Positions 8,420 through 16,313 are shown, numbered from the stretch's first letter. The stretch is 64,000 nucleotides of DNA from Psilocybe cubensis (GCA_017499595.2 CM039000.1:2480001-2544000); one strand, 5' to 3'. The notes: generated from the sequence alone by a model not told the origin. A program made the numbers and translations.

Positions 8420-11400
8420 TTATTTCTTACTACGGTCATCATTTGGGTATAACTTTCGGAAAGGCGTTAGCTTTGAGTTTAGGTGTTAGTTTGTGCTTTC
8501 TTACTTTACCAGGATTCATGATATTCAAGGGATCGATTGCCTTCTTGATTGTTTTCATTAAGTTGACTGTATTTATCCCTAACTCTTCTTCGAGATATTC
8601 CTTTTTTCCAAGACCTACACCATGTTCACCAGTACCTAGGAAATGTATAGTCAGTGAAGATTGACCCTGGAAGAACTTTGCAAACTTACAAGTTCCATCC
8701 AGAGCAATTGCGCGATGGACAAGACGGTGTACAGCTCCACTGGTCGCATCGAACTCTGTATTTTCATCGAAGAGAATGAACGAATGGAAATTGCCATCGC
8801 CCACATGTCCGACAATGGTATTGATCAATTTAGAGTTATTGAGATCTTTTTTGGTTTCGTAGACCAGCTCTGGCAAGCGTGAAACGGGAACACTAAGATG
8901 ATCATAAGTTACTAAAAATTAGAAATGAGATGTTATTTTGCTTTACCACACGTCAGTCGTCCAACAACGTTTTCCTGGATGGGCTCCAATGCTTGACATT
9001 AAGGCATATTTGCGGCTTTCCCAGAGTTCCTCGGCCTCCTGCTCTGTCTTTGCGAATATGAATTGACTGCTACCATGGTTGTTGACAATTTTCTCGACAA
9101 CTTTAGAGGCCTGCTTGATTGATTGATCGTCTCCTTGGATCTTGAAAAAGAGCGTGTCTTTTACAGGATAGGGCTTATCAACTAACCCTGCAGAGTTGAT
9201 GGTAGCCATCACTGGAATGAAAACCTCAATCAAAACTTTCAGTCAATGAACTTTCTCTGCTTACTATTATCATCCAAGAGCTCGACGCATTCTGATGACA
9301 GCGTCAGATTATAAAAATCTTTCCGAATAGATCAACTCTTTACGTATATGAGGACCGTAGGGTGAATTCAAGATAAGATTGGGCTCATCAGAAACCAGCA
9401 CCCTTACGTAATCAATGGGCTTGGCGCCAAGAGCGGCCAAAATCCAGCTCGAAAAAAAAATCAAAAGTTATGTTGACGGAAAATGGTTTCAGACAAAAAG
9501 TTTAAAAAAAAAAAATTCATAAATGTGCATATACAATCCTTACTACTAGCCTTTATGCCCACAATAATAGAATTACACCTCAGAGGTCAAATTGTAGTCT
9601 CTGGAAGTCCATAATGAGTCTGAGAGGTATTACTTAGGCGTGACTTATTGTCACGTGTGGTCACGTGTACCATTATATAAGCGGCCAAAAGAACATTGTC
9701 AAATTTTCGAAAATCTCCCAAACTCGAGAAAACACCATTTCTGACGTGTTAGACTAAAAAAAAAGGAAAAAAATTAAAATCTTTATAACTTCTTGAGATC
9801 AAAATTTTTTTGAAAAAAAAAACCACAGATGTGTTCAAAGAAGCATAACCTACATATCTGTGGTTCAAAAATGTAGAATAGTGTGAGTGCAGAAGGGTTG
9901 AAAAGGTTCGGAGGTAAGCCAACTTTTGCTTACCTAAGGGGGTGCTGGTTCCTGATGAGCCCAATCTTATCTTGAACGGCACTAACGGCTTTCTGAACAT
10001 TTGGAAATTGCGCCATGGCAACTCGGGTCGGAAGAACAGGGGCCAGACGTAAAGTGGCTAATTTTGATGGAATAAGATAAAAATGATTGTTATCATTTCA
10101 TTTGACATTTCAACACACCTTCAGTTACAATACCCAGCGTGCCTTCTGCACCTACAAAAAGCTTTGTAGTGTCAAACCCTGAAGCAGATTTTCTGGCGCG
10201 CCTTTTTGTTTTGATAATCTCGCCGTTAGGAAGGACAACAGTCTTTAAAACCAGCATGAGAATTATGAGGTTAGGTTAAGCGCCAGAAATTGCTTACTAA
10301 ATTTAGAAACCATTCTGCCCTGGCAGTTCCATAACGAACAGCATTTGCTATTCGTCCAGGAGTCGATACTTCGTTATTATTGAGACAAAGCTAAGAAACT
10401 TACTGCCGCTACATCCAGTTCCTACCATGCCACCGATTGTCTGCAAACAAAGAGTAGGAGCGCTGAGACAAATTTCAATTTACCAAAGAAAATAAAACGA
10501 ACTGCACCAGGCCCGGGGTCTAGCTGTACAAAATAACACTCACTGGTCCTTCATACTCACACAAAGGACATACGTACCGGAAAAAACAATGGAATACCAC
10601 GTTCTTTAAGAGTTTGATTGATATCCTCCCATCGAGTACCAGCCTGGCATATAAGATCCGAATCGTCGACTGGACGGTACGGTCAAGAAATGAGATTAAA
10701 GTTTTGGTACTAGCGTATGTACCATTAATGGCCAAGATTTTATCCATGGCCGACAGATCAACGCAGATACTGCCAGTGGGGTACTGAATCGAAACATTTC
10801 AGAAATAAGATATAAGTGAACGAAATATCGACAGTAGTGAATAAGGTGTACCCCAGAGAAATGACCTTCAAGACTTGTGGCGCCGCTATAAGGTGTTATA
10901 GGAACGCGGAAATTTCGAGCGATGTTGACAATTTGCACAACATCTGCGGTAGATTGGGGCCGAACCTTGAAATACACGTAAGATTTATCAGTATGGTAGG
11001 GAAAGAATCAGGAAGCATAGACATACTATCACAGAATGGGGCAACGCTGGATGATACGAATTTTCAGAAGATCCATAAGTTTTTAGCACATCTGGATCTG
11101 TGACTACAGCTTGCGCCCGAGGAAATATTTGACGCAGTTGTTCGATGGCGCACTCCAGCTCTTCTGGTGAAGCATAGGATAAATTCAGATCCTCAGTGTC
11201 TGGTGATGCTGAAGATCTTTGTGACTACGGTAGAAGACGCGGATGGAATGATTCAATGGGGAACGTTCACCAGGACGGTTGACTACGACAATAAATCTTA
11301 CAATTAAGTGACTTGTCCCAAGAAATATGGCAGAGTAAAGCACAGCCTGCAGAAATACGCGAGTGCCTTGAGAGCCGGAGAAGGAGTTCGACCAGGGAGA

Positions 11401-11550
11401 GTATCGCAGGTAGGGAGCGCCAGATTGTGAATATATTCCGAACTTCTGAGCTGATATAAAGATAGGGGAGACCCGGGGGGATGATTTTATGATCCTTGTT
11501 GAAAGGAACCTAGAGACATATAAGTATCTTTCAATGAGACGACTCATCAT
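8420..11550 (-). CDS. DLD1: FAD-linked D-lactate dehydrogenase (cytochrome), mitochondrial, interrupted by a MITE in a coding exon
   Basis: [79 protein letters not shown]. Frame appears intact apart from the insertion at 9376-9967. Confidence 0.9.
9376..9967. mobile_element. Non-autonomous DNA transposon (MITE), 592 bp, TA target-site duplication (Tc1/mariner-like)
   Basis: TIRs AGATTGGGCTCATCAG(A/G)AACCAGCACCC match at 27/28 and extend to about 36 nt with a 2-nt indel and one more mismatch. TA at 9374-75 and 9968-69. Removing element plus one TA restores ...[16 protein letters not shown]-rich interior with no transposase ORF. Confidence 0.93.
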
Positions 11551-14900: not shown

Positions 14901-16313
14901 GGAGAGGATAAGGAAAAACACGCTTGGACGGCGAACGATGACCTTTTGTTGAAGACCATTATAGACAAGTACTCGACGAACTGGCAGCTCATAGCTGATA
15001 CTTTTAACGCAACTCGCCTTTCGACGCCGACCGATGTACGAACCCCAGTCGATTGTGCCGAGCGTTGGAAAGAGAAATGGAATCCTGATCGCAAGTTGCA
15101 ACTTCCTGAGACATCTCAGTCTTTGACAGAGGAAGCTTCGACTTCTGGGAGCAACGCACAATCCAACATGCTCACGCGAGCGGTCAAGCGCCTCGCCAGC
15201 ACTGGCACAACAAACATGTCGTCGTCACTGAATTCCGCAGCCTCCACTGAGGCTCGCAAGCGAAGGCGACACATTCTACTCAATGAAGCCGTTCGAAAAG
15301 CTGTTAAGAAAAGGAATGAAGCGGCACAGAAGGCTATTGGTACGTAAATTTGTATAATTTGAAATTGATGACGCTGAATTTACTGTAGCGAATCAAAGAA
15401 AACCGCCCGCGGTCCACGAGACTCACAACCAATTCAACAAGTTACCGAAATTGAGTCCTCAAGAACTCAGCCGTATGAAAGCAGAAAAGGATCAGCGAGA
15501 TAGTCAGGAGGCAGCTCTGGTAAGAAAACGACAAGAAGAGCAACAACGACAAAACCTGTTGTTACGAGAGCAGCAGCAACGACCAAATGTTACAGCACGT
15601 ACTAAATTCCATTCCTCGTCGCTCTTTGTTAACATCGATCGTAGGTGCAACAGCAGCAGCAGCCCCCGCAGCCTCCCCAACAAACCCCTCAACCTCAGCC
15701 CACAAATGCTGTACAGCCACTTCAGCAACAGGCACAATTTCCTCAGCAACTCGCTCAACTACAACAACTGCAAGCACAACAACAGGCAAATCAGCGCCAA
15801 AATATAACTGGTATAACAGTGATGCCGAATCGGCCGGCTAGGATAACAGCGAATGCCAATGGCCGACCGGTCGGGCCGCAAGCCCTACAAGCCCAAGCCC
15901 AAGCCCAGCTTTTACAAGCCCGAATGCAGCCTCAAATACATCCAGGCGGGGGGGCAACTAATCTGGTCAGTCCTTGCATGTCTTAGGTAGAGTAGTCATT
16001 GATAGAGCATAACTAGCCACAAGGGCTCCTTGCGCCAAACCAAGGGGGTGGAACTGCCCTTCATCCGTCAACCGGTGCCTTTTATGGGTTGGCACAAAAT
16101 ATGACTCAAGAACAGGTTGAACTCTTTCGTGCTCAGTTACTGGTTAGCTAAAGTCCAATTCTCTTGTGAATTCAGTTTCTGATGATGGCACTCAAGACCG
16201 CACAGCAGCAACAGCAGCAGCAGCAACAGCAGCAGCAGCAACAACAACAACAACAACAGCAGCAGCAGCAGCAGAATCAATCTGCCCAGAGCAATTTCGG
16301 TGCTCAGCCCTAA
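11902..16313 (+). CDS. EAF1: NuA4 scaffold Eaf1/Vid21 (HSA and SANT/Myb domains, Q-rich tail)
   Basis: [11 protein letters not shown]...[28 protein letters not shown] region; [37 protein letters not shown] motif. Start codon inferred. Confidence 0.88.
16203..16274 (+). repeat. (CAG/CAA)24 polyglutamine microsatellite in the last EAF1 exon
   Basis: 72 nt of uninterrupted CAG/CAA codons. Confidence 0.95.

Follow-up and report, generated by a model that had tools for sequence, protein, structure and literature searches.

Cryptic splice sites near the ends of the maize transposons Ds and dSpm give rise to leaky alleles, and the mimp elements of Fusarium are small elements with terminal inverted repeats (TIRs) that duplicate a TA dinucleotide and are mobilized by a Tc1/mariner-type transposase. 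Both resemble, by description, the element treated here, a miniature inverted-repeat transposable element (MITE) found within a coding exon of DLD1, the gene for D-lactate dehydrogenase, in a 64,000-nucleotide stretch of the Psilocybe cubensis genome (GCA_017499595.2 CM039000.1:2480001-2544000; this whole stretch is called the window, and all coordinates are positions in it). Removal of the transposons Tc1 and Tc3 from mRNA was reportedly the subject of earlier work by Rushforth and Anderson in 1996. For the P. cubensis locus, we consider it probable that a recent, segregating MITE insertion has made a null or hypomorphic allele and that the in-frame intron that can be drawn through it is an unforced coincidence exploited by annotation pipelines.

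The accessible text of Zhao et al. 2025 (PMC12779559) describes the excision of Tc1-type elements from animal mRNAs as triggered by pairing of the terminal repeats, with products that are often out of frame, and states that rescue was confined to protein regions of low conservation; junctions of this SOS splicing are mostly not GU-AG, and the authors raise the speculation that sites for the spliceosome evolve within the terminal repeats of transposons. The P. cubensis locus is like that of Tc1 and Tc3 in Caenorhabditis elegans and human cells in that a TA-duplicating transposon with paired repeats occupies a coding exon, where removal would leave short indels, some of them in frame, and base-paired terminal repeats, the mark of an SOS substrate, are present in the predicted fold of its transcript. 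Unlike Tc1 and Tc3, whose removal has been shown by RNA, the P. cubensis MITE is known from sequence, and its insertions lie in conserved domain cores.

A second comparison is with introners. In the available portions of PMC11282704 and of Gozashti et al. 2022 (bioRxiv 10.1101/2022.06.06.494994), MITE-like introners carry or co-opt splice sites, and their removal is exact because one site is carried and the other is co-opted from the duplication. Like the introners of algae and protists, the P. cubensis MITE belongs to a family of short elements with TIRs and a target-site duplication (TSD) that inserts in genes and has candidate splice signals; unlike them, it is known from 2 genic copies, not hundreds, and no GT..AG pair restores the original sequence of the exon, in which at least 63 nucleotides (nt) would stay after each of the 12 open in-frame solutions that were checked. 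The introner-like elements of fungi share with it a fungal host and a repeated sequence that forms introns or, in P. cubensis, might do so, but those covered in the same part of Gozashti et al. 2022 have neither TIRs nor TSDs and occur in Pezizomycotina, whereas the P. cubensis MITE has both and its host is an agaricomycete. No paper pairing "introner" with "Agaricomycetes" was found in the literature collection searched. One paper containing both "Psilocybe" and "miniature inverted-repeat" concerns, in its accessible text, gene clusters of Fusarium graminearum and was judged unrelated.

Host gene, insertion site and empty alleles

The host gene lies on the minus strand at 8420..11550, where 15 exons, delimited by means of spliced contigs, lead from an ATG at 11550 to a stop codon ending at 8420. 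Its 14 GT..AG introns, all 52-77 nt long, are verified by two such contigs (1744 and 1802 nt), and once these introns and the MITE are removed, an intact protein of 574 amino acids (aa) remains. The interrupted coding exon spans 9344..10057 (minus strand; joints 9291/9344 and 10057/10119) and comes to 120 nt without the MITE. Translated exon sequence of 87 aa has 100% identity to a public P. cubensis D-lactate dehydrogenase model (P0001) and 82% identity to the orthologue in P. cyanescens, which itself matches the mouse LDHD structure 8jdc (E = 3.5e-101). A further public model, P0121, contains the Pfam domains FAD_binding_4 (7e-30) and FAD-oxidase_C (1e-55) and, minus a 21-aa insert to which we return below, equals the window protein from its second Met (573/573 residues). 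By its domains and close orthologues, the host protein is a D-lactate dehydrogenase (cytochrome) of the FAD-linked oxidase family. The DLD model of Marasmius crinis-equi (P0078) has a 21-residue insert elsewhere, directly after SPYGAH at the position of window intron 9292-9343, which looks like a retained intron.

The MITE occupies 592 nt (9376..9967, with no strand assigned) between a left TIR of 28 nt (9376..9403, plus strand), which has 1 mismatch to the right one, and a right TIR of 28 nt (9940..9967, minus strand), which matches the query with 0 mismatches; the TIR pattern has 2 matches in the 64-kb window versus 0 expected from 100 shuffles. The two copies of the duplicated TA, at 9374..9375 and 9968..9969, are evident by direct reading and agree with the joint seen in empty alleles (9373->9968, with 2 ambiguous letters). 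Beyond them, 9367..9373 and its partner 9970-9976 are the arms of a 16-nt target that in the empty allele is a perfect palindrome around the TA. Because the host target is itself palindromic (TTCAAGA-TA-TCTTGAA), a repeat finder reports inverted-repeat arms of 37 nt at the MITE ends, where the true TIR is 28 nt. Once the MITE is taken out of the window, palindromic arms of 7 nt flank just 2 of its 3351 TA sites, and the choice of such a target may reflect a preference of the transposase. In sequencing run X8, the flank of another MITE copy agrees with that of the host as far as 9976, apart from 1 difference.

A 2-bp TA duplication, TIRs, a small noncoding body (GC content of 0.34-0.37 versus ~0.43 in the flanks; longest fully internal open reading frame of 44 aa) and a dispersed multicopy family together characterize the element as a MITE, and an inserted MITE with TIRs and TSD is beyond chance. 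Its probable placement among TA-duplicating elements of the Tc1/mariner type (Stowaway-like) takes the TA duplication as its sole character. A 3-bp duplication of the PIF/Harbinger type was rejected, since TAA and TTA, the triplets that flank the element, do not form a direct repeat and empty alleles skip 594 nt, not 595. An Rfam match to ARRPOF within the MITE was likewise rejected (26 bits versus a gathering score of 127). No further copy was found in the 64-kb window by TIR pattern and repeat searches, and the inner 23 nt of the TIR had 0 matches in a metagenome scan.

The sequence-only reading of this stretch had described a MITE in a DLD1 exon within an otherwise undamaged gene and had proposed a search for empty alleles in other strains. 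Both descriptions hold, and the search was fruitful: a precise empty site, in which 594 nt (the 592 nt of the MITE plus one TA) are skipped, is present in all four of the runs examined at the locus, which comprise two spliced mRNA contig sets (X10 and X11) and two DNA runs (X7 and X8, with contigs of 16.3 kb and 118 kb). The flanks differ from the window at 0 positions in X7, X8 and X10 and at 1 in X11, so the empty and filled alleles share a haplotype, and the insertion is polymorphic and very young. Since both mRNA contig sets carry the empty site, their splicing is silent on removal of the MITE; neither covers the MITE or its TIRs, which we take as evidence in neither direction, and no RNA run emerged as a holder of the filled allele. 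At 10011, the RNA contig of X11 has T where the plus strand of the window has C, and X10, X7 and X8 agree with the window, which may be a strain polymorphism.

Runs also differ in how much of a 2.9-kb stretch around the insertion they contain: sampled words from it are present at shares of 0.88-0.99 in six runs (94-99% in five of these) and at ~82-83% in three. The lower share is the value predicted by loss of 594 nt (20% of the stretch), and X7 and X8, which belong to that group, were confirmed as empty. These figures bear on the suggestion that an assembler misplaced the MITE into the gene, which we find hardly credible. A multicopy repeat is open to such an error, and four runs do lack the MITE at this site; opposed to it are a TA that is duplicated cleanly where the empty site is precise, the five runs that hold 94-99% of the sampled words and two public sets of gene models that each, independently, include translated TIRs within the DLD gene.

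Frame disruption and putative splice sites in the MITE

With the MITE retained, the DLD1 reading frame ends 12 codons into the element (after aa 357), at a TAA (9932-9930) that overlaps the donor G|TAAGC. Removal of 9933..9403 (531 nt) leaves 63 nt and yields a stop-free, in-frame product that is lengthened to 595 aa by 21 residues following VQD. In both orientations, phases 0 and 1 of this 63-nt remnant are open and phase 2 is closed, and mirror sites on the plus strand are present by direct reading. The sequence-only reading had noted the stop 12 codons into the element, the 531-nt removal, the remnant with two of three frames open on the gene strand and the mirror sites, together with a consensus donor at 9933, a weak branch signal and AAG acceptor at 9403 and the use of AAG acceptors elsewhere, and each was recovered here; AAG acceptors, in place of CAG or TAG, end 3 of the 14 verified introns (8453-8504, 10243-10297 and 10966-11026, minus strand).

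Candidate sites were scored with a splice weight matrix built from the 14 true sites of the host gene, a small set that makes the scores rough. The candidate 5' site GTAAGC, a little interior to the right TIR (9928..9933, minus strand), scores 7.2, which ranks 3rd among the 37 GT sites of the exon and falls within the range of true donors, and all three public gene-model solutions described below use it. On the minus strand at 9912-9935, the donor sequence AGGTAAGC is followed 8 nt on by its reverse complement GCTTACCT, and a local 8-bp hairpin with 9919-9912 is predicted. The candidate AAG acceptor (9403..9405, minus strand), which gives the +21-aa product and is used in P0121, scores 1.1 and ranks 23rd among 34 AG sites. 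Its sole YTNAY motif lies 9 nt upstream, versus ~12-33 nt for the most plausible branch motifs of verified introns; such a motif is present in 10 of the 14 and absent from 4, so that the scan has little discriminating power.

Other partners are available to the same donor. A GAG acceptor after a run of T residues (9448..9450, minus strand; score of 4.4) is open and in frame with donor 9933, gives a +36-aa product and is used in P0001 and in the aminodeoxychorismate synthase model P0122. An acceptor that scores 5.9 (2nd of 34) closes a 76-nt cryptic intron, GTAAGC...CTCAC...CCACAG, wholly within the MITE (9858..9933, minus strand); its length fits the verified range of 52-77 nt, and when used alone it shifts the frame by +2 and does not rescue the gene. 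Among all 519 GT..AG pairs at least 40 nt apart in the exon, 12 leave the frame open and in register, 2 of them with donor 9933. None of the 12 restores the original exon, the best leaving +63 or +108 nt, and the frame-restoring property of a GT..AG pair is within chance.

These sites permit a reading in which the spliceosome rescues the gene: the motif CTTA(G/C)GTAA in each TIR would supply a 5' site at one end and TAAG a 3' site at the other, leaving an in-frame insert of 21 aa (or of 36 or 42 aa), and the MITE would be an exon-tolerant nascent introner. We judge this unlikely, if worth serious consideration. The donor score, the AAG acceptors of the host gene and the remnant, 63 nt long whichever way the MITE is oriented and with two of three phases open, count in its favor, as does precedent in the accessible texts of PMC11282704 and PMC12779559, which describe transposon-derived introns and GU-AG removal of Tc1. 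Several properties of the sites are adverse. An intron of 531 nt would exceed the 14 verified ones in length by a factor of 7-10; the acceptor has a low rank, with its branch-like motif too close by a measure that is itself weak; the donor sits in a predicted hairpin and has a closer acceptor that would give an intron of typical length with no frame rescue; and the match of frame does not exceed chance. The spliced contigs, moreover, stem from empty alleles alone, with no carrier reads among them.

Family members, second exonic copy and public gene models

Contigs resembling the element at 90-99% identity occur in run X7 with several different flanks, and the summed depth of their interior is 79-155, versus 13.9 for single-copy sequence. 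In run X8, it is the TIR end alone that recurs, on short contigs with differing flanks and depths of 80-150 versus 24.8 for a single copy. The MITE family seems to have been recently mobile in P. cubensis.

One other copy is visible through gene models. Forty residues around the +36-aa insert were searched against proteins of 319-1015 aa, with 2 matches among 9 candidates, and the insert peptide was absent from proteins of 30-318 aa (1 candidate); the search is sensitive to one phase and one orientation alone, and its evidence consists of gene models. Within those bounds, the TIR-encoded peptide occurs in two genes among proteins of 30-1015 aa. The second is the P. cubensis aminodeoxychorismate synthase: its model P0122 has, between GYWCVGG and SGDWSV, an insert of 36 aa that is identical to the one in DLD and shares its orientation and phase. 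This copy in a coding sequence bears out the earlier suggestion that the family is able to sit in exons. The recurrence of the same peptide also speaks for spliceosomal rescue, with the qualification that the second copy was found in the sole phase and orientation in which the search could detect it.

Public models treat the MITE as an intron in three ways. In P0121 (594 aa), the DLD product gains 21 aa by exactly donor 9933 and acceptor 9403; in P0001 (580 aa), it gains 36 aa by donor 9933 and acceptor 9448; and in another synthase model, P0123, the gain is 42 aa, from two introns around an 18-nt micro-exon. The stretch corresponding to this micro-exon in the window copy is 9736..9753 (minus strand), and when the donors and acceptors are transferred there, the pairs 9933/9754 and 9735/9448 reproduce the SLTRQKC peptide of P0123. 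Three in-frame solutions for one element are what frame-preserving, homology-guided gene predictors yield, and the two DLD and two aminodeoxychorismate synthase records probably carry transposon-derived peptides as annotation artifacts. The accessible text of the P. cubensis assembly paper (PMC8220353) reports annotation with FunAnnotate and there mentions no strain-matched RNA; the model sets may or may not derive from that assembly.

Cost of putative spliced products and weighing of the readings

Any spliced product would bear residues at a conserved place. The insertion falls at VQ[ED]|ILN, where 0 of the 51 aligned orthologues have an inserted residue and the flanking A, V, A, V and Q are invariant, and the 21-aa insert shrinks the match to FAD-oxidase_C from profile positions 5-248 to 33-248. 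Where the insert falls in the protein structure is judged from conservation and the Pfam match, and the site may be a helix. In aminodeoxychorismate synthase, the insert breaks the alignment with Chorismate_bind as well as those with solved structures, and by sequence comparison, both insertions are within conserved catalytic domain cores.

The unspliced transcript is predicted to form a terminal stem of 38 bp, which appears in both the minimum free energy and the centroid folds, and the 626-nt fold reaches -189.8 kcal/mol (z = -6.7). Every spliced form keeps both TIRs, and therefore the mRNA would keep the predicted 38-bp stem (-73.7 kcal/mol, versus -8.0 for the empty allele); the retained hairpin may impair translation or attract RNA silencing. 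Spliceosomal rescue would, then, yield products that disrupt invariant motifs in two enzymes and bear a hairpin of -74 kcal/mol in their coding sequence, although the predicted stem would also juxtapose the two splice sites, which helps that reading.

The same stem admits an excision outside the spliceosome, in which the paired TIRs would be recognized and cut imprecisely nearby, as in SOS splicing of Tc1, some of the products being in frame. We regard this as very improbable. The predicted stem and the stability of the 626-nt fold favor it; to our knowledge, fungi are generally held to be without RTCB, which counts against it. In the accessible text of PMC12779559, base-pairing of inverted terminal repeats alone triggers SOS splicing in C. 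elegans and human cells, but the system is shown in animals alone and depends on AKAP17A, CAAP1 and RTCB, a ligase.

The sequence of events that we favor is as follows. A young, nonautonomous, multicopy cut-and-paste element has entered the central TA of the 16-nt palindrome in the DLD coding exon. Other isolates have a precise empty site, on flanks whose haplotype is the same or almost the same, and express a normal mRNA for the 574-aa protein. Without splicing, the transcript of carriers stops 12 codons into the MITE, most likely giving a null or strongly hypomorphic allele, tolerated perhaps because the gene is dispensable or because a second nucleus or a paralogue shelters it. The in-frame intron would be one of several GT..AG combinations that restore the frame by chance, and gene predictors and the sequence-only reading alike would have chosen such combinations because the frame is restored. 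Some cryptic splicing from donor 9933 is plausible, and its nearest well-formed partner would give the 76-nt intron, with no frame rescue.

Several observations weigh against this account. In quality, the donor TAG|GTAAGC equals the true donors of the host gene, AAG acceptors are really used in 3 of its 14 introns, and the length of the remnant is divisible by 3 whichever way the MITE lies, with two of three phases open; TIR pairing, if it forms as predicted, would bring two distant splice sites together. The mRNA contigs come from empty alleles, which leaves splicing of the MITE possible in carriers, and the word shares of 0.88-0.99 in six runs fit either a MITE that is widespread among isolates or identical copies elsewhere. 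Finally, there is a second identical exonic copy, in a conserved enzyme and represented in two public model sets, and a viable fungus with insertions in two core enzymes would be easier to explain if they are tolerated.

The interpretation that had been placed on the locus, that of an introner-like element, therefore stands in part: the exonic MITE, its frame-restoring, splice-like sites and a second exonic copy are real features, whereas the frame match within chance, the weak acceptor and the conserved cores into which the insertions fall argue against it. In its fullest form, an active TA-duplicating MITE family of an agaricomycete, with a near-palindromic CTTA(G/C)GTAA that gives splice sites in either orientation, and with exonic insertions removed, by way of the TIR stem, as a new intron that leaves an in-frame TIR-encoded peptide, would be a nascent, polymorphic DNA-transposon introner in a lineage where none is known, which we consider rather improbable and more doubtful than splicing as such. 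Were the element spliced, it would present a rare birth of an intron from a still-segregating DNA transposon in a cultivable fungus with short introns, and because the empty and filled alleles occur on the same haplotype, the cost of each step would be measurable. In the unspliced case, which we judge more likely, both enzymes may have null alleles in some isolates.

Elsewhere in the window, a CAG array of 24 copies (16203-16274, 91% matches) lies within a CAG/CAA-rich region (15647-16269) and may encode polyglutamine in a neighboring gene.

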